Below, in pieces: positions 1,015 through 45,378 of a stretch of 64,000 bases of DNA. Source of the DNA: Escherichia phage JK1; sequence record MZ436830.1; one strand, given 5' to 3'. The translations under genes and the position numbers were made by a program. Under the pieces are notes generated by a model. It did not search any database and was not told the DNA's origin. It saw nothing but the letters and a program-made list of their open reading frames with translations. Every line of letters begins with the position of its first letter. Position 1 is the stretch's first letter.

Positions 1015-1588
1015 ATTCTCTACATTCCTTAACAAATTTTTCTAATAATAAATCGCTTTCAAAATTAGGATTTTCTACGAATTTATCAAAAAGATCATCA
1101 ACAATAGTTAAGATATTCTTTTTACTAAGAATACGTTTATTTTCATGCTTCGTTTCAGAATCAACTATAAGAGTAAAGAAATATTTCTTGCCCTGAAATT
1201 TTACAGTAGTATCAATATAGAATAAATTTGACTTTTGTAAATTACGTTTAAACCATGCATCACTTAAACTATAAACGCCAAGATAATCATAATCGTCGTT
1301 TAAATAACAGACCGTCCATTCAGGAGAAACAAAATCAGTAAATTCAACGTCAAAATCGCATGTTAATAAATGAATTGATTCAATACTGTTAATAAGTATT
1401 CCAGGACGTATTAAAGACTTTTTACCTTTATAAAATCCAGAAAGACTTTCATCAGTTTCATATGAAGAACCCCAATAATAATTACGTCCTTCTGCCATAC
1501 GTTTAAGAGCATTTAATAATTGGTCTGGAACATCAACCTGTCTTTGGAACTCTTCAAACATTGAATTGAAATCACTTTGCATTTTCAT
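983..1588 (-). CDS. hypothetical protein
   Basis: ORF track 201 aa, same strand and tight spacing as neighbours; no recognisable motif. Confidence 0.5.
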   Translation of the reverse strand: MKMQSDFNSMFEEFQRQVDVPDQLLNALKRMAEGRNYYWGSSYETDESLSGFYKGKKSLIRPGILINSIESIHLLTCDFDVEFTDFVSPEWTVCYLNDDYDYLGVYSLSDAWFKRNLQKSNLFYIDTTVKFQGKKYFFTLIVDSETKHENKRILSKKNILTIVDDLFDKFVENPNFESDLLLEKFVKECREYVKAITIPSK

Positions 1589-1606
1589 TCCTACTTACTT
1601 CAAGTA

Positions 1607-1626
1607 ATAGGGGCCGAAGCCCCTTA
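1607..1626 (-). terminator. GC hairpin GGGGC-CGAA-GCCCC immediately after the stop of the 1630..2223 gene
   Basis: Perfect 5-bp GC stem with tetraloop at 1610..1623; the same AGGGGCCGAAGCCCCT motif recurs at 41688 and 62402. Confidence 0.45.
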
Positions 1627-1629
1627 TCA

Positions 1630-2223
1630 TTATTTCAGAGAATTAATGTATTCCTGAACATCGGCAGAGGTAGTTTCAACCCCAGAAATATTGCCATTAA
1701 AGGTTTCAACTCGAGCAAGAGTATCTTCAATATCAACCTTAGTCAGTGCTGCAATTTCAACTACATCATCAGCAGTACTAATTCCGAGGGCATTCGCGGC
1801 GCGAGTTTCACGGATATATTCCAATTTAACTGCAAGTTCTTGGCGAGCATCATCTAACTCAACTACTTTCTTGGCGATTTCAATTCGCATTTCAGCATAA
1901 CCATCAGCTTTAGTAGTCAACTGCTCAGCTGTTCGACGATATAGTAAACCAAGTTTAGCATGCATTGTTACATCTTGACCTTCAGAAAGAAGCTTGCGAA
2001 TTTCACGCTCTTTTGATTCGGCCTGTCGATTCTTTTCGACAATAAGTTCACGAATACGTTTTTCTTCATTAATAGATTTAACAGAAGCAGTTTTTAGATC
2101 TTTAATCTTATCAAGTAGTTTTGCTGCCGCAGCAGTATACTGTTCTTCAACAGATAAATTTTTAGCCATAGCAGAACCAAGTTTAGTGCGAATAAACTCA
2201 ACAATTTTCTTCAGCATGTTCAT
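1630..2223 (-). CDS. hypothetical coiled-coil protein (weak PspA/IM30-like resemblance)
   Basis: ORF track 197 aa, charged/Ala-rich helical heptad character throughout ([27 protein letters not shown]...); canonical early promoter upstream at 2269..2298. Confidence 0.5.
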
Positions 2224-2268
2224 AGCATTTCCTTTAGTTAATTAAGGGTTTTTATAATCCGTGGGAGT

Positions 2269-2298
2269 ATTATACTCTACTCCCAAGAGTTTGTAAAC
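2269..2298 (-). promoter_or_regulatory. T4-type early promoter (GTTTAC-N18-TATAAT) for the 1630..2223 gene
   Basis: Minus strand reads GTTTAC (2298..2293), 18-nt spacer, TATAAT (2274..2269); -10 box lies in inverted repeat GGGAGTA/TACTCCC (2263..2284). Confidence 0.6.
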
Positions 2299-2631
2299 TT
2301 ATTCTTCGTCCAATTCATCAATAAATTTATCGATACTACTATTAATAGACTCATCGATGATTAACAAAGCATCATCATCCATAATATTAATATTTTCTAA
2401 AGCATCAATATAAGCTTGATTGACTATAGACCATGCCCTTTGAAAATATGGGGCTTCATCATCAGGACTGAACCAACGTACACCTTCAAAGATACGTTTG
2501 GCATAATCTAACACCCATTGTACAGGCATGTTTTGAGAACGTTCGTTAAACTCTTTAAAGTCCTTAGATTCAAAAAGCTCTTCAGGATAATAATTTCTAT
2601 TACAAAAAGCTTTACTAAAGTTACGTTTCAT
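2299..2631 (-). CDS. hypothetical protein with acidic C-terminus
   Basis: ORF track 110 aa; early-promoter-like element immediately upstream. Confidence 0.5.
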   Translation of the reverse strand: MKRNFSKAFCNRNYYPEELFESKDFKEFNERSQNMPVQWVLDYAKRIFEGVRWFSPDDEAPYFQRAWSIVNQAYIDALENINIMDDDALLIIDESINSSIDKFIDELDEE

Positions 2632-2657
2632 AATGTTCTCCTCAAAGTTATAGGCTC

Positions 2658-2687
2658 ATAATATCTCAATCATGAGCCTGTGTAAAC
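2658..2687 (-). promoter_or_regulatory. T4-type early promoter (GTTTAC-N18-TATTAT) for the 2299..2631 gene
   Basis: GTTTAC at 2687..2682 on minus, -10 TATTAT at 2663..2658; -10 flanked by 8-bp inverted repeat AGGCTCAT/ATGAGCCT (2652..2679). Confidence 0.55.
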
Positions 2688-2963
2688 TTATTTCATATTA
2701 TTGAAATATTCTTCTGCGATTTCATCGTTATCATGGTAAACTTTAGAAGACAGTTTAACATAACCTTCTGCTGTGAACATATTAATCACAACCTTTACAG
2801 TATACCACTGACCATCTTCATTACCCATTACTGCGTAAGTTTCAAACATCGGATGGTCAGGACCGATAACTTTAATATCATTCACTGTACGACCAAAATC
2901 TTCTGAAACACATTTCATAAAGAAGTTGAACAGTTCGCCGTAATTATCCATTTCATTCTCCAA
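2688..2963 (-). CDS. hypothetical protein
   Basis: ORF track 91 aa; early-promoter-like element upstream at 2995..3024. Confidence 0.5.
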   Translation of the reverse strand: MENEMDNYGELFNFFMKCVSEDFGRTVNDIKVIGPDHPMFETYAVMGNEDGQWYTVKVVINMFTAEGYVKLSSKVYHDNDEIAEEYFNNMK

Positions 2964-2994
2964 GTTGTTTTCTGTATCAGTAGTTGATAGTTGT

Positions 2995-3024
2995 ATAGTA
3001 CCATGGAAGGGTAAGGATGTAAAC
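2995..3024 (-). promoter_or_regulatory. T4-type early promoter (GTTTAC-N18-TACTAT) for the 2688..2963 gene
   Basis: GTTTAC at 3024..3019 on minus, TACTAT at 3000..2995. Confidence 0.5.
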
Positions 3025-3135
3025 TGTTTTGTGAAAAAAATTTTTAAAAAGTTTTGGGGAATTCTAGGGCAGGGAGGGGCAATTAAAAGATAGGATAATA
3101 TATTATAAAGGATAGAAACTAAATGATGTCTAGAG

Positions 3136-3186
3136 AGGCCCGGAAAGGCCTAGATACCAAAAAGCCCCAACCTTTTGGTCGGGGCT
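3136..3186 (-). terminator. tandem hairpins plus U-run after the 3194..3655 gene
   Basis: AGGCC-CGGAAA-GGCCT (3136..3151) then AGCCCCAACC-TTTT-GGTCGGGGCT (3163..3186); minus-strand RNA has the hairpin followed by UUUUU. Confidence 0.55.
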
Positions 3187-18368: not shown

Positions 18369-19365
18369 TTCAAGTGTTATCTATCGTGCGATAGTTACTT
18401 CAAAATTTAGAACAGAAAAAATGTTGAATTTTTATAATTCAATTGGAAGTGGTCCGGATAAAAACACTATCTTTATCACATTTGGAAGATCAGAACCGTG
18501 GTCATCAAATGAAAATGAGGTGGGCTTTGCCCCACCTTATCCTACCGATTCTGTATTAGGTGTAACTGACATGTGGACTCATATGATGGGAACAGTAAAG
18601 GTTCTTCCATCAATGCTTGATGCTGTTATTCCTCGTAGAGATTGGGGAGATACTAGATATCCGGATCCATACACATTTAGAATTAACGATATTGTAGTGT
18701 GTAACTCAGCTCCTTACAACGCTACTGAATCAGGCGCAGGCTGGTTAGTATATCGTTGTTTAGATGTTCCTGATACCGGAATGTGTTCAATCGCATCTTT
18801 AACTGATAAGGATGAATGCCTTAAGTTAGGTGGAAAATGGACTCCTTCTGCTAGGTCAATGACTCCTCCTGAAGGTCGAGGAGATGCTGAAGGAACAATT
18901 GAACCTGGGGACGGATATGTTTGGGAATATCTATTTGAGATTCCGCCTGATGTATCTATAAATAGATGCACGAATGAATATATCGTGGTTCCTTGGCCTG
19001 AGGAATTAAAAGAAGACCCGACTAGATGGGGATATGAAGATAATCTCACTTGGCAGCAAGATGATTTTGGATTAATTTACCGTGTTAAGGCAAATACTAT
19101 CCGTTTTAAAGCATATTTAGATTCAGTTTATTTTCCTGAAGCTGCATTGCCAGGAAATAAAGGATTTAGACAAATATCAATAATCACGAATCCTCTTGAA
19201 GCTAAAGCTCATCCAAATGACCCAAACGTTAAAGCTGAAAAGGATTATTATGATCCGGAAGATTTAATGAGGCATTCGGGCGAAATGATTTATATGGAAA
19301 ATAGGCCACCTATTATTATGGCAATGGATCAGACAGAAGAAATCAATATTCTGTTTACATTTTAA
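18361..19365 (+). CDS. 8: gp8 baseplate wedge subunit
   Basis: 334 aa, T4 length and order. Confidence 0.9.
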   Translation: MNDSSVIYRAIVTSKFRTEKMLNFYNSIGSGPDKNTIFITFGRSEPWSSNENEVGFAPPYPTDSVLGVTDMWTHMMGTVKVLPSMLDAVIPRRDWGDTRYPDPYTFRINDIVVCNSAPYNATESGAGWLVYRCLDVPDTGMCSIASLTDKDECLKLGGKWTPSARSMTPPEGRGDAEGTIEPGDGYVWEYLFEIPPDVSINRCTNEYIVVPWPEELKEDPTRWGYEDNLTWQQDDFGLIYRVKANTIRFKAYLDSVYFPEAALPGNKGFRQISIITNPLEAKAHPNDPNVKAEKDYYDPEDLMRHSGEMIYMENRPPIIMAMDQTEEINILFTF

Positions 19366-19370
19366 ATTAA

Positions 19371-19396
19371 GGGAGCCCATGGGCTCCCTTTTTCTT
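19371..19396 (+). terminator. terminator after gene 8
   Basis: Perfect palindrome GGGAGCCC-AT-GGGCTCCC followed by TTTTTCTTT. Confidence 0.7.
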
Positions 19397-19404
19397 TATA
19401 AATA
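19397..19404 (+). promoter_or_regulatory. late promoter TATAAATA for gene 9
   Basis: Exact TATAAATA 25 nt upstream of gp9 ATG. Confidence 0.65.
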
Positions 19405-19428
19405 CTATAAACTCATAAGGAAACCGCT

Positions 19429-20295
19429 ATGTTCATTCAAGAACCAAAGAAATTGATTGATACCGGCGAAATTGGTAACGCTTCTACTGGTGATATCTTA
19501 TTCGACGGTGGTAATAAAATTAATAGTGATTTTAACGCAATTTATAATGCGTTTGGCGATCAACGTAAAATGGCAGTAGCAAATGGCACCGGAGCAGATG
19601 GTCAAATTATCCATGCTACTGGATATTATCAAAAACACTCTATTGCAGAGTATGCAACTCCAGTAAAAGTTGGCACTAGGCATGATATTGATACCTCTAC
19701 TGTAGGTGTTAAAGTTATCATTGAAAGAGGCGAACTCGGCGATTGTGTTGAATTCATTAATTCTAACGGATCAATATCAGTTACTAATCCTTTGACAATT
19801 CAAGCTATTGATTCAATTAAAGGTGTTTCAGGTAATTTAGTAGTAACTAGCCCATATAGTAAAGTTACTTTACGCTGTATTTCATCTGATAATTCTACGT
19901 CGGTTTGGAATTATTCTATTGAAAGTATGTTTGGACAAAAGGAATCACCAGCTGAAGGTACATGGAATATTTCTACATCTGGATCAGTTGATATTCCACT
20001 ATTTCATCGCACTGAATACAATATGGCTAAATTACTAGTTACATGCCAATCGGTAGATGGAAGAAAAATTAAAACAGCAGAAATAAATATTCTTGTGGAT
20101 ACTGTCAATTCAGAGGTAATTTCTTCTGAATATGCTGTCATGCGAGTTGGGAATGAAACCGAAGAAGACGAAATCGCTAATATTGCATTTAGTATTAAAG
20201 AAAATTACGTAACGGCGACTATAAGTTCTTCAACTGTCGGTATGAGAGCAGCAGTTAAAGTTATCGCTACGCAGAAAATCGGGGTGGCTCAATAA
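19429..20295 (+). CDS. 9: gp9 baseplate wedge tail-fibre connector
   Basis: 288 aa, T4 length and order. Confidence 0.9.
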   Translation: MFIQEPKKLIDTGEIGNASTGDILFDGGNKINSDFNAIYNAFGDQRKMAVANGTGADGQIIHATGYYQKHSIAEYATPVKVGTRHDIDTSTVGVKVIIERGELGDCVEFINSNGSISVTNPLTIQAIDSIKGVSGNLVVTSPYSKVTLRCISSDNSTSVWNYSIESMFGQKESPAEGTWNISTSGSVDIPLFHRTEYNMAKLLVTCQSVDGRKIKTAEINILVDTVNSEVISSEYAVMRVGNETEEDEIANIAFSIKENYVTATISSSTVGMRAAVKVIATQKIGVAQ

Positions 20296-40100: not shown

Positions 40101-40125
40101 GGGACCTTTCGGTCCCTTTTTATTT
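40101..40125. terminator. bidirectional terminator between gene 24 and rnlB
   Basis: GGGACC-TTTC-GGTCCC with T-run on plus (TTTTTATTT) and on minus (TTTGTTTTAT); rnlB stop abuts it. Confidence 0.7.
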
Positions 40126-41128
40126 AACTTACCAATTCAATCCAAGCCGGACGAAGTACATCTTGTACCATTTTAACTAATTCCTTCTTAATCAAAGAAG
40201 GATTATCCGCTTGAGTTAGAGTAATACCTTCACGAGAAGTTTCTTCCAAAATATCTTGAACCGTTAGTCCCATCACCTTTCCAAAATCTTTTGGACCAAT
40301 TTCACCAATTTTAGAAATAACGTTATTTACTCGATTCAGTGTAACGTAACAAGCTAAAATTCCCAGCAATTTGTTATCAGCTTCTGACAGTTTAACTTTA
40401 GCTTTAATAGGCTTGTCAGACTTTTTCTTTTCACTAAATTTAGAATTCTTGCATTTGATGGCTACACGATTGCGATTAGGCAGCCAAGAAGGATAACAAG
40501 GTTTCAATACATATCCTTCAGCGGTAAATACTTCGCCTTTGGCTTCAGCTTTCCAAACACATTTGTTAGCGTCAATTAAACCTGCATTATCTACGGTAAA
40601 ATTATAAGACGGAACAACAGAATCCAAATCATTTGGAAGTTTAATAAGATCTTCAAATTTACCACGACCCAAAAGTGGAGCGATTTTAAACCCAAATGAA
40701 TTACAAAACGATTCCATCATGTAATCATCAACATAAGTTACATCACCACTTTCGGTAGTGACAATAATGTCAAATACATAAAAATCTTTATCGCCATAAT
40801 CAACATTCTTCTGAATGCCAGGTCCAGCGAATTCGCCAAAAACTTGATAAGTCACAACAGCTGAAGTTTCCATAATTTCTTGGACAGCTTTAATAGAATC
40901 TTCGTAATTCTTTAAAATAATTTCATAACCGAAGAAATCTTCAGCAGGAAGAATCGGTCCAGTACGTTTAGCGCAAGTTACTTTATCACGCTCAATAATC
41001 AATGAGAAATTTGTGCCGTGAATCTTTTCACGAGCTACCCATTCGCCGCCAGTCAATCCTAAGCTATAAATTTTTTCAATAAATTTAGAGTTGTAATGAT
41101 TTTCAAGACTGCTATACTTTTTAAACAT
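40124..41128 (-). CDS. rnlB: RNA ligase 2
   Basis: 334 aa; adenylylation motif KIHGTN near N-terminus; T4 Rnl2 length and position. Confidence 0.9.
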
Positions 41129-41137
41129 AATTAATCC

Positions 41138-41618: not shown

Positions 41619-41687
41619 GTTATCGAGTTGGTGCCATTATATACATCATTTTCTGAGTGTGTTTTGTGTGCTTTCAAAATGAAGAAA

Positions 41688-41701
41688 GGGGCCGAAGCCC
41701 C
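41688..41701 (-). terminator. GGGGC-CGAA-GCCCC hairpin after hoc
   Basis: Second copy of the AGGGGCCGAAGCCCCT motif; sits just 3' of the hoc stop on the minus strand. Confidence 0.45.
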
Positions 41702-41707
41702 TTATGA

Positions 41708-43126
41708 TTATGGATAGGTATAGATGATACCAGTTTCTAAAGCAGTTTTATGAATGATGTATCCATTACGCGATTCTTGGACATCAACTTCTGGATAGTC
41801 TTTCATCATCTTCTGAAGAGTGTAACGATGCAGGTAGTATTTACTATCTGGATCTTCAGTTTTCCAATCTTTACCTTCTTCAGTCATTTTTTGAATTTCA
41901 TCCATAACCCACCAACCGCACCAGATGTAAGCTGAGCTACGGTGTGGAAGAGGATGAACATAAGGTAATTCACCTTCTGGTTCTGGAGCAACTTTATCAG
42001 TTACCTGAACTTGACCTTCTGCTGTAATAGTTTTGCTATCATAATCAGTAGCAGTAACAATTGCCGTAACTTCAATAGTTTGACTTCCAATAGATGAGGT
42101 ATCAACGGTATATACATTAGTTGACCCTTCTACAGGAGAAGAATCTTTCTTCCATGAATACGCAATTTGCGCTTCTTCTGGAGCATCAGTGACATTAGCA
42201 GTAAATGTAGCCGAAGCATCTTGTTGAACGTTAATAGAAGGAGGAGTCAATGTAACCTGTGGATTCATTGTCTTCTTATTAACCGTTAATGATACTTCAT
42301 TCGAAGTAACCTCCTTTTCATTGTAATTTTCTGCAGTTACTTGCGCTACACATTTAATTCTTTTTACTCCACTTGTAGTTGGAGTATAGTTAAATGTAGC
42401 AGAAGTTGCTTCACCAATTTGAGAATCATCTACATACCACTGATACGTAGCAGATGCTCCACCAGGTTGAGAAGCTAAGGCAGCAGTAAATTGAACTGGG
42501 GTTCCAATTACTCCAGCTGGAGGACTATCAGGAGTTACTGCCAAGGTAGTTGTCTGTGTCTTTTTATTAACAGTCAGTGACACTTCATTAGAAGTAACTT
42601 CCTTTGCATCATAATCTGTCGCGGTTACTTGAGCTACACACTTAATTGTTTTAACTCCGCTTGCGTCAGGAGTGTAATTGAATGTAGCAGAAGTTGCTTC
42701 GCTTACAGGAGAACCGTCAACGTGCCATTGATACGTAGCAGACGCTCCTGGTGGCTGTGAAGCCAAGGCAGCAGTAAATTCAACGGCTGTTCCGATTACT
42801 CCTTCCGGAGGACTAGCAGGAGTTACGGCTAATGTAGTTGTTTGTGTCTTATTTTGAACTGTGATAGTTGTACTAATTTCTGCTGTTTCAGGTTCAGATT
42901 CTGCAACTTGATTGGTTGCAACTACTTTAATAGTCTTTTGACCGGCAGGTCCTTTTAGTACATAACTAAAAGTTGCTGACGTTTCTTCCTGTGGAGCGTC
43001 GTCTACAGTCCAAGCATATGTAATAGGTCCATCTCCAGTTTGACCACTGGGTGTAGCAGTAAACTGCTGAGTCTGATCTATAACTCCAGTAGGTGTTTTA
43101 GGAGTTATATCAACTGTAAAAGCCAT
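41708..43126 (-). CDS. hoc: Hoc highly immunogenic outer capsid protein, extended form with duplicated Ig-like domain
   Basis: 472 aa (T4 Hoc recalled as 376 aa); Ig-like repeats; two adjacent 96-aa units almost identical (KTQTTTLAVTP...SNEVSLTVNK). Confidence 0.85.
   Translation of the reverse strand: MAFTVDITPKTPTGVIDQTQQFTATPSGQTGDGPITYAWTVDDAPQEETSATFSYVLKGPAGQKTIKVVATNQVAESEPETAEISTTITVQNKTQTTTLAVTPASPPEGVIGTAVEFTAALASQPPGASATYQWHVDGSPVSEATSATFNYTPDASGVKTIKCVAQVTATDYDAKEVTSNEVSLTVNKKTQTTTLAVTPDSPPAGVIGTPVQFTAALASQPGGASATYQWYVDDSQIGEATSATFNYTPTTSGVKRIKCVAQVTAENYNEKEVTSNEVSLTVNKKTMNPQVTLTPPSINVQQDASATFTANVTDAPEEAQIAYSWKKDSSPVEGSTNVYTVDTSSIGSQTIEVTAIVTATDYDSKTITAEGQVQVTDKVAPEPEGELPYVHPLPHRSSAYIWCGWWVMDEIQKMTEEGKDWKTEDPDSKYYLHRYTLQKMMKDYPEVDVQESRNGYIIHKTALETGIIYTYP
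42275..42850. repeat. in-frame 288-bp tandem direct repeat (2 copies) inside hoc
   Basis: Copies 42275..42562 and 42563..42850 encode near-identical Ig-like domains (aa 93-188 and 189-284); DNA similarity visible, e.g. around 42250..42300 vs 42550..42600. Confidence 0.8.
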
Positions 43127-43135
43127 AAGTTATCC

Positions 43136-43816
43136 TTATTTTAATGTTACGAAAGAAGAATTACGTGTTTCACGAATTAGAACTGATCCGTCGCGATTAA
43201 TGTAATAAATTAAGCTAAATAAAGTTTGGTGCGCCGACGCGTGTTCAAAACTAGTTGGGTGAGATTTCCAATCCGGAGTTTCAGCAATCCACTGGTAAAT
43301 CCACCAAGGAACAGTGCAGAATCCTGGATTTTTTCCAATCAGCTGAAGATTCGGACTAAAGTTTTCCGGAAGAGTAAATACAGACGGCTTTTCAGATTCA
43401 ATAATCTCAGCTACAGCCTGCTCAAATTTTTCTTCAACAAAAGGAGTATCTTCAATCAAAACATCGGTATTTTCAGGAATTTTATCCGTTTCTACTACTT
43501 CAATTTTAATGTCAGATTTAACCGGAGAATCAATCAGAAGTGCTGCCTCTGGATTGACTTCTTCATCGTCATATTTTAATCCGTCTGCAGCATCAGCAGC
43601 ATCAATTAAGTCTTTAATAGATAACCCATCAGTCTCTGGCATAGGTTCACTAGCGAGCTTCTGGAGGGCTTCTTCAATATCATTAACGATATTATCAAAA
43701 GATTTATTCTTTTTGACCTTTATACCAAACTGTTCAGCATATTCAGCTAATTTAGCTTTAGCTTCTTTATTATCATCAAGAGCCTTCAGCTCTGCAATAT
43801 AATCTTTATCTATCAT
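43136..43816 (-). CDS. inh: Inh inhibitor of prohead protease gp21 (hoc.1)
   Basis: 226 aa MIDKDYIAELKALDDNKEAKAKLAEY...; T4 Inh length and position. Confidence 0.85.
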   Translation of the reverse strand: MIDKDYIAELKALDDNKEAKAKLAEYAEQFGIKVKKNKSFDNIVNDIEEALQKLASEPMPETDGLSIKDLIDAADAADGLKYDDEEVNPEAALLIDSPVKSDIKIEVVETDKIPENTDVLIEDTPFVEEKFEQAVAEIIESEKPSVFTLPENFSPNLQLIGKNPGFCTVPWWIYQWIAETPDWKSHPTSFEHASAHQTLFSLIYYINRDGSVLIRETRNSSFVTLK

Positions 43817-43829
43817 AATATTTCCTCAG

Positions 43830-43837
43830 TATAAATA
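43830..43837 (+). promoter_or_regulatory. late promoter TATAAATA upstream of uvsW
   Basis: Exact TATAAATA 30 nt upstream of uvsW ATG. Confidence 0.55.
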
Positions 43838-43866
43838 TAGATATATTTATTACATGGTATTTAGAC

Positions 43867-45378
43867 ATGACTGACATTAAAGTACATTTTTATGATTTTA
43901 GTCACGTGAGAATTGATTGTGAAGAAAGTACATTTCATGAACTCCGTGATTTCTTTAGCTTTGAAGCTGATGGGTATCGTTTTAATCCGAAGTACAAATA
44001 TGGCCACTGGGATGGACGAATCCGTCTTTTAGATTATAATCGCCTTCTTCCATTCGGTTTAGTCGGGCAAATTAAAAAGTTCTGCGATAACTTTGGCTAT
44101 AAAGCCTGGATTGACCCACAGATTAACGAAAAAGAAGAATTATCAAGAAAAGATTTTGATGAATGGCTTTCTAAATTAGAAATCTATTCAGGAAATAAAA
44201 GAATTGAACCGCATTGGTATCAAAAAGATGCAGTGTTCGAAGGATTAGTTAATCGTCGTAGAATTCTTAATCTTCCAACATCCGCAGGTAAATCTTTAAT
44301 TCAAGCTTTGCTTGCTCGGTATTATTTGGAAAATTATGAAGGCAAAATTCTTATCATTGTTCCAACAACTGCTCTGACAACTCAGATGGCTGATGACTTT
44401 GTTGACTATCGTTTATTCAGTCATGCAATGATAAAGAAAATCGGCGGTGGAGCATCAAAAGATGATAAATATAAAAATGATGCACCAGTCGTTGTTGGTA
44501 CATGGCAAACTGTAGTAAAACAACCGAAAGAATGGTTCTCACAGTTTGGAATGATGATGAATGATGAATGCCATCTTGCTACAGGAAAAAGTATTTCATC
44601 TATCATATCAGGTTTAAATAACTGTATGTTTAAATTTGGTTTGTCTGGTTCATTACGTGATGGCAAAGCTAATATCATGCAGTATGTTGGAATGTTTGGT
44701 GAAATATTTAAGCCAGTAACGACTTCTAAATTAATGGAAGATGGACAAGTAACTGAGTTAAAAATTAATAGTATTTTTCTTCGCTATCCAGATGAGTTCA
44801 CTACTAAATTAAAGGGAAAAACTTACCAAGAAGAAATAAAAATTATTACTGGACTCAGTAAAAGAAATAAATGGATCGCTAAATTAGCTATTAAGCTTGC
44901 GCAAAAAGATGAAAACGCTTTTGTCATGTTTAAACACGTATCGCACGGTAAAGCTATTTTCGATTTAATTAAAAATGAATACGATAAAGTTTATTACGTA
45001 TCAGGGGAAGTTGATACCGAAACCCGCAATATAATGAAAACCTTAGCTGAAAATGGTAAAGGAATAATTATAGTAGCTAGTTATGGTGTATTTTCTACTG
45101 GTATTTCAGTTAAAAATCTGCATCACGTTGTTTTAGCGCACGGTGTTAAATCAAAAATCATTGTATTACAAACAATCGGTCGTGTATTACGTAAGCATGG
45201 TTCTAAGACAATAGCAACCGTCTGGGACCTCATAGATGATTGTGGCGTTAAGCCAAAATCTGCTAATACGAAAAAGAAATATGTTCATTTGAACTATCTT
45301 TTAAAACACGGCATTGATCGTATTCAGCGCTATGCAGATGAAAAATTTAATTACGTAATGAAAACAGTTAATTTATAA
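43867..45378 (+). CDS. uvsW: UvsW SF2 DNA/RNA helicase
   Basis: 503 aa; Walker A PTSAGKS, DEAH-like MMNDECH; T4 UvsW. Confidence 0.95.
   Translation: MTDIKVHFYDFSHVRIDCEESTFHELRDFFSFEADGYRFNPKYKYGHWDGRIRLLDYNRLLPFGLVGQIKKFCDNFGYKAWIDPQINEKEELSRKDFDEWLSKLEIYSGNKRIEPHWYQKDAVFEGLVNRRRILNLPTSAGKSLIQALLARYYLENYEGKILIIVPTTALTTQMADDFVDYRLFSHAMIKKIGGGASKDDKYKNDAPVVVGTWQTVVKQPKEWFSQFGMMMNDECHLATGKSISSIISGLNNCMFKFGLSGSLRDGKANIMQYVGMFGEIFKPVTTSKLMEDGQVTELKINSIFLRYPDEFTTKLKGKTYQEEIKIITGLSKRNKWIAKLAIKLAQKDENAFVMFKHVSHGKAIFDLIKNEYDKVYYVSGEVDTETRNIMKTLAENGKGIIIVASYGVFSTGISVKNLHHVVLAHGVKSKIIVLQTIGRVLRKHGSKTIATVWDLIDDCGVKPKSANTKKKYVHLNYLLKHGIDRIQRYADEKFNYVMKTVNL

Follow-up and report, generated by a model that had tools for sequence, protein, structure and literature searches.

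Why does the Hoc protein of Escherichia phage JK1 carry one Ig-like domain more than its counterpart in phage T4, and how old is the additional domain? We addressed this question in a stretch of 64,000 nucleotides of the phage sequence (record MZ436830.1), hereafter called the window. The initial annotation, made from the nucleotide sequence alone, had attributed the extra length to a recent tandem duplication of one domain, which would have left two near-identical copies and a site of unstable copy number. Our comparisons favour a different history. By far the most probable explanation, in our judgement, is that the window carries an old Hoc allele in which a paralogue of domain 2 has been added, so that two long-diverged units, here called A and B, stand side by side, and that this A-B allele is among the three length alleles that are common in nature. 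The question is of practical relevance, as Hoc is the handle used by T4 display and vaccine platforms and has been proposed to mediate the adherence of phages to mucus.

The hoc gene and its genomic context

The minus-strand open reading frame at 41708-43126 specifies a protein of 472 aa and ends in a stop codon, its frame is intact, and its translation is identical to QXN68268.1 of Escherichia phage JK1, a protein that had already been deposited. When the PDB sequences were searched by phmmer, the 472-aa protein matched T4 Hoc (376 aa; PDB 5vf3, 8t1x and 8t9r) with E = 5e-209, and no other phage protein in the PDB was matched. The Pfam family PKD scored above its cut-off, and the matches to Ig_3, Ig_2 and I-set were weaker. 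The gene order uvsW - inh - hoc - 24.3 - 24.2 - rnlB is that of T4. The neighbouring genes uvsW (43867-45378, plus strand), inh (43136-43816, minus strand) and rnlB (40124-41128, minus strand) were assigned by their Pfam families and by the annotated loci of GiZh, T4 and PinkRuby, and the ORFs of the window are collinear with the GiZh and PinkRuby loci at 97-100% identity over most of the locus. The phmmer match and the locus order confirm the first identification of the gene, with 472 aa compared to 376 aa in T4; it is an intact hoc of a Tequatrovirus.

Tequatrovirus phage teqsoen shares 98.1% identity with the window over 22 kb (30000-52000). The hoc gene is only 94.2% identical to that of teqsoen, against the 98.1% of its surroundings, and dN/dS of domain 1 in comparison with T4 is raised (0.133/0.322). 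Judged by these values, hoc is a local hot spot of variation.

Domain architecture and predicted structure

The alignment with T4 Hoc falls into two pieces, in which residues 1-112 correspond to T4 residues 1-112 and residues 195-472 to T4 residues 99-376, so that exactly one unit of 96 aa is in surplus in the 472-aa protein. Domain 1 (aa 1-92; 42851-43126, on the minus strand like all parts of the gene) aligns to T4 Hoc 1-92 and was modelled as a beta-sandwich with pLDDT of about 90. It is followed by unit A (aa 93-188; 42563-42850), the first copy of Ig-like domain 2, which was delimited by the repeat finders, the tree of units and the model, and by unit B (aa 189-284; 42275-42562), the second copy, which was delimited by the repeat finders, the type-diagnostic sites and the model. 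The last Ig-like domain (aa 285-376; 41999-42274) aligns to T4 residues 189-280 and is the equivalent of T4 domain 3; Ig_3 and I-set match its residues 289-373, both under the curated cut-offs. The remaining part (aa 377-472; 41711-41998) comprises the linker and the capsid-binding domain at the C-terminus, was recognized by the T4 alignment and has low pLDDT in the model. Only one substitution separates residues 380-472 from T4 residues 284-376.

The AlphaFold2 model, obtained with 33 homologues (mean pLDDT 82, pTM 0.52), contains four confident beta-sandwich domains, at approximately residues 1-91, 93-187, 189-283 and 286-376, and a C-terminal domain modelled at low confidence. The top Foldseek matches in the PDB are strings of four Ig domains, namely Sidekick Ig1-4, Dscam Ig1-4 and ICAM-5 D1-D4, and a Hoc structure was absent from the 50 best matches. 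Four Ig-like domains are thus predicted for this Hoc in comparison with three in T4, and the claim of one additional in-frame domain is borne out by the surplus unit in the alignment as well as by the model. Sequence comparison supports the assignment of the surplus domain as a tandem paralogue of domain 2.

The phages RB69, F26 and Salmonella phage SG1 match hoc only in its C-terminal part (41708-41980, ~273 nt), at 95-96% nucleotide identity, and the part that encodes the Ig domains is not alignable to them by megablast. The anchor domain therefore shows extreme conservation, or exchange, across genera.

Divergence and age of the domain-2 units

A 288-nt tandem direct repeat in 2.0 copies was detected by TRF at 42269-42850 (score 747, 80% matches), and a second repeat finder placed the copies at 42269-42556 and 42557-42844 with 79% identity. 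The register 42275-42562 and 42563-42850, in which the repeat had first been described, is of equivalent phase and maximises the amino-acid identity between the units, and the repeat as such is thus corroborated by both programs. In this register, 61 of the 288 nucleotides (78.8% identity) and 17 of the 96 residues (82.3%) distinguish A from B. Of the codon differences, 32 are synonymous and 17 non-synonymous, and no exact run shared by the units is longer than 20 nt. The repeat is far beyond chance, yet diverged, and the units cannot be called near-identical with scattered substitutions.

The synonymous divergence between A and B is high (dS = 1.01, dN = 0.10; Nei-Gojobori), compared to dS of at most 0.36 for the orthologous N- and C-terminal parts of hoc between the window and 12 of the 13 other alleles, the thirteenth being left out of this score because its flanks differ in length. 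The paralogous units within every other multi-unit allele have 75-81% nucleotide identity and dS of 0.66-1.49. Both A and B are under purifying selection, with dN/dS of about 0.1.

A DNA-level tree of 25 units from 14 alleles (neighbour-joining with bootstrap, unrooted) separated the A-type from all other units with 100% bootstrap, whether all sites or third codon positions were used. The same split reached 98% on unit nucleotides 96-213 and 13% on the unit ends. Unit A clusters with the single GiZh unit and with the first units of all alleles that have two or three units. Unit B has 88% nucleotide identity to the unit of T4, compared to 78% for unit A, and carries the B state at 20 of the 21 diagnostic sites that separate the unit types. 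The proteins give a concordant grouping, in which the first units of one-, two- and three-unit proteins cluster together and the second units do likewise. The contrast in dS and the grouping of units by position, not by phage, indicate that the A/B split predates the sampled Tequatrovirus radiation.

The divergence is unevenly distributed along the unit. Nucleotide identity between types is 70% in the centre versus 83% and 81.5% at the ends, and the predicted strands hold only 5 of the 17 amino-acid differences; A and B have diverged mainly in the central, largely loop-encoding part. The ends do not distinguish the types, a pattern compatible with recombination or gene conversion. The 20-nt run comprises unit nucleotides 151-170 (inside the EATSATF codons) and lies at 42681-42700 in unit A and at 42393-42412 in unit B, both on the minus strand. 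At these nucleotides, where A and B of the window are identical, the B-type unit of T4 differs, and the residue pattern 'BAA' of the window recurs in a minority of other alleles. The identical stretch is probably a short gene-conversion tract.

Typing of the units by a 40-aa protein core was also tried and proved unreliable and noisy; unit B of the window fell in the A group via its A-like EATSATF patch. Therefore, the typing at DNA level was used instead. Rooting of the unit tree by domain 2 of the clade with 50% identity was rejected, as this domain looked by eye too dissimilar to A and B for a reliable alignment.

Distribution of the two-unit allele

The arrangement extends beyond this genome and its closest relatives. 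Hoc lengths of 376, 472 and 568 aa correspond to one, two and three units, and the best 120 protein clusters comprise 83 of 376 aa, 28 of 472 aa and 7 of 568 aa, in addition to one variant of 468 aa and one of 570 aa. An even-spaced sample was drawn from the 656 phage records that matched hoc and gave 52 full-length matches. The ~1131-nt form (1117-1134 nt; the T4 coding sequence has 1131 nt) was found in 32 of them and the ~1419-nt form (1416-1421 nt) in 20, so the two-unit allele makes up ~38% of the even sample. RB30 Hoc (AAM52483.1) is among the 167 members of the 90%-identity cluster to which the window's Hoc belongs, many GenBank records carry an annotation of the 472-aa allele, and A followed by B is seen in many phage genomes of independent origin and in metagenomes. 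The hoc allele with four Ig-like domains is common and has long been deposited.

Several records deserve a separate comment. The best DNA match to the window's hoc (95.7%) is located at 18685-20103 of MG010123.1, a 32-kb record named 'Staphylococcus phage SAJK-IND', which is evidently a contig of a T4-like coliphage under a wrong name. Escherichia phage mobillu (MN850622.1) is filed under Mosigvirus, and its hoc, 91% identical to that of the window, is of the A-B form, too. In Escherichia phage T2 (PV648363.1) hoc is annotated as three CDS fragments and represents a disrupted gene (1628-2617 of the extracted locus), and the match spans 1117 nt instead of 1131 nt. The occurrence of two BLAST places per record was considered as a sign of three units and turned out to be wrong, as phiD1, HP3.2 and mobillu have two units.

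Gain, loss and reshuffling of units

The single unit of T4 is B-type at 21 of 21 diagnostic sites, and that of GiZh is A-type at all of them except the last. Single-unit alleles are accordingly found with a B-type unit (T4) and with a largely A-type unit (GiZh and I2938), and all nine multi-unit alleles examined at the DNA level start with an A-type unit. Along most of the 4.4-kb locus the identity between the window and GiZh amounts to 97-100%, with a single clean gap of 288 nt. At the sites where A and B differ, the GiZh unit follows A up to nucleotide 261 and matches B at nucleotides 270, 274 and 288; nucleotide 276 is that of A, and nucleotide 279 is found in neither. A chimera with an A head and a B tail is what an unequal crossover deleting one unit of a window-like allele would be expected to produce.

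Other alleles show the units in further combinations. The two units of phiD1 are 100% identical to units 1 and 2 of the three-unit UGKSEcP1, and the array of HP3.2 is A-C. The window-type allele of domain 1 (98-100% identity) is linked to one unit in GiZh, to two in I279 and HP3.2 and to three in YOKO. The allele sequences indicate that whole units are gained and lost over evolutionary time. To this extent the suspected instability of copy number is real, as natural one-, two- and three-unit alleles exist; the expectation of frequent variants within a phage stock is not supported, since units with 79% identity and exact runs of at most 20 nt should yield length variants only rarely in one stock.

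Origin of the A-B allele

We propose that Hoc binds the centre of each hexamer of the major capsid protein via a C-terminal domain nearly identical to that of T4, and that a string of Ig-like domains, four in this case, would project outward from the capsid. Unequal homologous recombination at the conserved unit ends, either within one genome or between co-infecting phages, would remove or add whole units of 288 nt. The expected products contain one unit (A only or B only), two (A-B or A-C) or three (A-B-C), and the arrays would be reshuffled onto unchanged backgrounds of domain 1 and the C-terminal domain. Recombination or gene conversion presumably keeps mixing the ends of A and B. The DNA-level typing of units behind this scheme comprises 14 alleles.

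A more far-reaching reading regards the domain-2 region as a recombining cassette array of one to three units and at least three old types, with the conserved ends as crossover sites, on which balancing or diversifying selection acts for the length of the fibre and for the number or type of its glycan contacts. If so, fibre length and glycan-contact surfaces would tune mucosal or bacterial adherence or the evasion of anti-Hoc antibodies. We put this forward tentatively and consider it rather unlikely in this full form.

Among the competing histories, the one that survives best assumes that A and B were single domain-2 alleles of different phages, which had diverged for a long time and were joined by unequal or illegitimate crossover during co-infection. 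No duplication within a genome would ever have occurred, and the single-unit T4 (B) and A-only forms would be ancestral and not products of deletion. Hoc is highly mosaic, single-unit alleles of the B type (T4) and largely of the A type (GiZh, I2938) both exist, and the centres of A and B have diverged (70% identity) more than the flanks, as expected for old balanced alleles; on the other hand, the GiZh unit, which starts as A and ends as B in a background like that of the window, fits a deletion from two units to one better than ancestry. Moreover, a joining of alleles does not readily explain why nine of nine multi-unit alleles examined at the DNA level begin with an A-type unit, and the tandem domain repeats that arose independently in T4-like phages of Klebsiella demonstrate that Hoc does undergo true duplication within the gene. 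We regard this history as improbable.

That domain 2 was duplicated in tandem and in frame only recently and in this lineage alone, with near-identical copies and a frequently changing copy number, is far less probable still and would be surprising given the data. This view accounts for the perfect phase of the 288-nt repeat and for the one unit fewer in T4, but is contradicted by the 79% nucleotide and 82% amino-acid identity of the units with dS of ~1.0, by the longest exact run of 20 nt, by the presence of orthologous A and B units in many phages with a type split of 100% bootstrap, and by the identical protein and 167-member cluster that were already public. The initial annotation itself had held that divergent units would speak against it, and the units are divergent. 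Their dS of 1.01 versus at most 0.36 in the orthologous flanks and the A-B order common to many phages refute a recent origin of the duplication.

An assembly artefact, i.e., a second unit produced by faulty assembly of the repeat or by a mixture of phages, has a negligible probability: short-read assemblies can mis-assemble tandem repeats, but the 61 differences between A and B make the assembly unambiguous, the reading frame is intact, and the architecture recurs in many independently sequenced genomes and metagenomes. The old A-B allele thus remains the reading that we adopt below.

Relation to known Hoc proteins

T4 Hoc is encoded at the same locus, its domains 1 and 3 are orthologous to those of the window and its domain 2 is orthologous to unit B; it lacks the A-type copy of domain 2 and has three Ig-like domains instead of four. 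The 472-aa Hoc proteins of JK1, RB30, slur02/04, teqhal, IME340, PinkRuby, phiD1, ECO4 and others share the A-B architecture of the window. The other 472-aa homologues compared are 88-95% identical to it and differ by allelic substitutions and local mosaicism only. In HP3.2 Hoc, the second unit is of the C type, whereas that of the window is of the B type. The 568-aa Hoc of UGKSEcP1, UGKSEcP2 and metagenomic contigs shares the unit family and the flanking domains, its first two units are the counterparts of A and B, and it differs by a third unit (C-type or mosaic), which gives five Ig-like domains.

In other genera a different domain has been repeated or lost in independent events, and wherever the protein identity to the Hoc of the window was determined, it did not exceed 50%. 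The Hoc of Klebsiella phage Marfa (471 aa; 48% protein identity to that of the window) contains a tandem repeat of domain 3 with an offset of 94 aa and 79% amino-acid identity (1501-2916 of the extracted locus). A further Hoc of 472 aa has the same domain-3 repeat as Marfa at 48% identity, a 282-aa Hoc of a relative lacks domain 2, and the hoc spans of this T4-like clade are either long (~1360-1470 nt) or short (~1080-1130 nt). PNJ-9 Hoc lacks domain 3 (PMC11853027), and the Hoc of Serratia phage Muldoon has 10 Ig domains on a conserved capsid-binding domain (PMC10385173). In a distant relative of Hoc, the frame is open for 1045 aa (approximately 1501-3141 of the extracted locus), which possibly represents a many-domain Hoc.

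Hoc has gained and lost Ig domains in frame on repeated occasions. Fokine et al. 2023 describe 650 Hoc homologues as strings of Ig-like domains, 1 to 10 in number, on a conserved C-terminal domain (PMC10385173), and a three-domain Hoc variant has been characterised (PMC11853027). A literature search of incomplete coverage found this general variability of Ig number and did not find the polymorphism of one, two or three units of the A, B and C types within Tequatrovirus. The variable number of Ig domains in Hoc is already known, and the polymorphism within the genus is a detail of that phenomenon.

Implications for the Hoc fibre

Hoc forms an 18-nm fibre at the hexamer centres (PMC10385173). 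The near-identity of the capsid-binding domain to that of T4 suggests that the Hoc of the window would likewise be a dispensable decoration, with one monomer per gp23 hexamer centre. The extra domain plausibly makes the fibre longer by the extent of about one Ig domain, i.e., roughly 4 nm beyond the 18 nm of T4; this value is an estimate, since the model leaves the relative placement of the domains uncertain (pTM 0.52).

The Ig-like domains of Hoc adhere weakly to mucin glycans (PMC9271167; PMC11150434), and such weak binding to mucin or to fucosylated glycans has been reported for T4, PNJ-6 and PNJ-9. Residues S183/L184/T185 in domain 2 of PNJ-9 Hoc are needed for MUC2 binding (PMC11853027), and the mapped binding site differs by phage, being in domain 1 of PNJ-6 and in domain 2 of PNJ-9 (PMC11853027; PMC11150434). 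Because the S-L-T residues are present in both units of the window, as S183-L184-T185 and S279-L280-T281, the extra domain may provide a second copy of a possible glycan- or mucin-contact surface.

Among the Tequatrovirus phages in nature, hoc alleles that encode three, four or five Ig-like domains are in circulation and are interchanged by recombination. Therapeutic or "model" phages that are otherwise ~98% identical may therefore differ in the length of the fibre and in binding valency.

Sequences flanking hoc

A hairpin resembling an intrinsic terminator, AAGGGGCTTCGGCCCCTT with a T-rich tail behind it, is located at 41686-41703 on the minus strand, directly past the hoc stop codon, and phage GiZh has a terminator annotated at the equivalent position past its hoc. 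The whole window contains 22 copies of the T4 late-promoter core TATAAATA, compared to 9.1 expected. None of them lies directly upstream of inh-hoc on the minus strand, the exact core is absent from this strand within 400 nt upstream of hoc, and the promoter of inh-hoc was not located.

The gap between inh and uvsW in the window is 50 nt long (43817-43866), whereas T4 and ECO4 carry a homing-endonuclease gene at this place. On the other side of hoc, at approximately 40730-41130, in 24.2 and the 5' part of rnlB, the identity to GiZh falls to 59-75% over ~400 nt, which indicates a local mosaic replacement.
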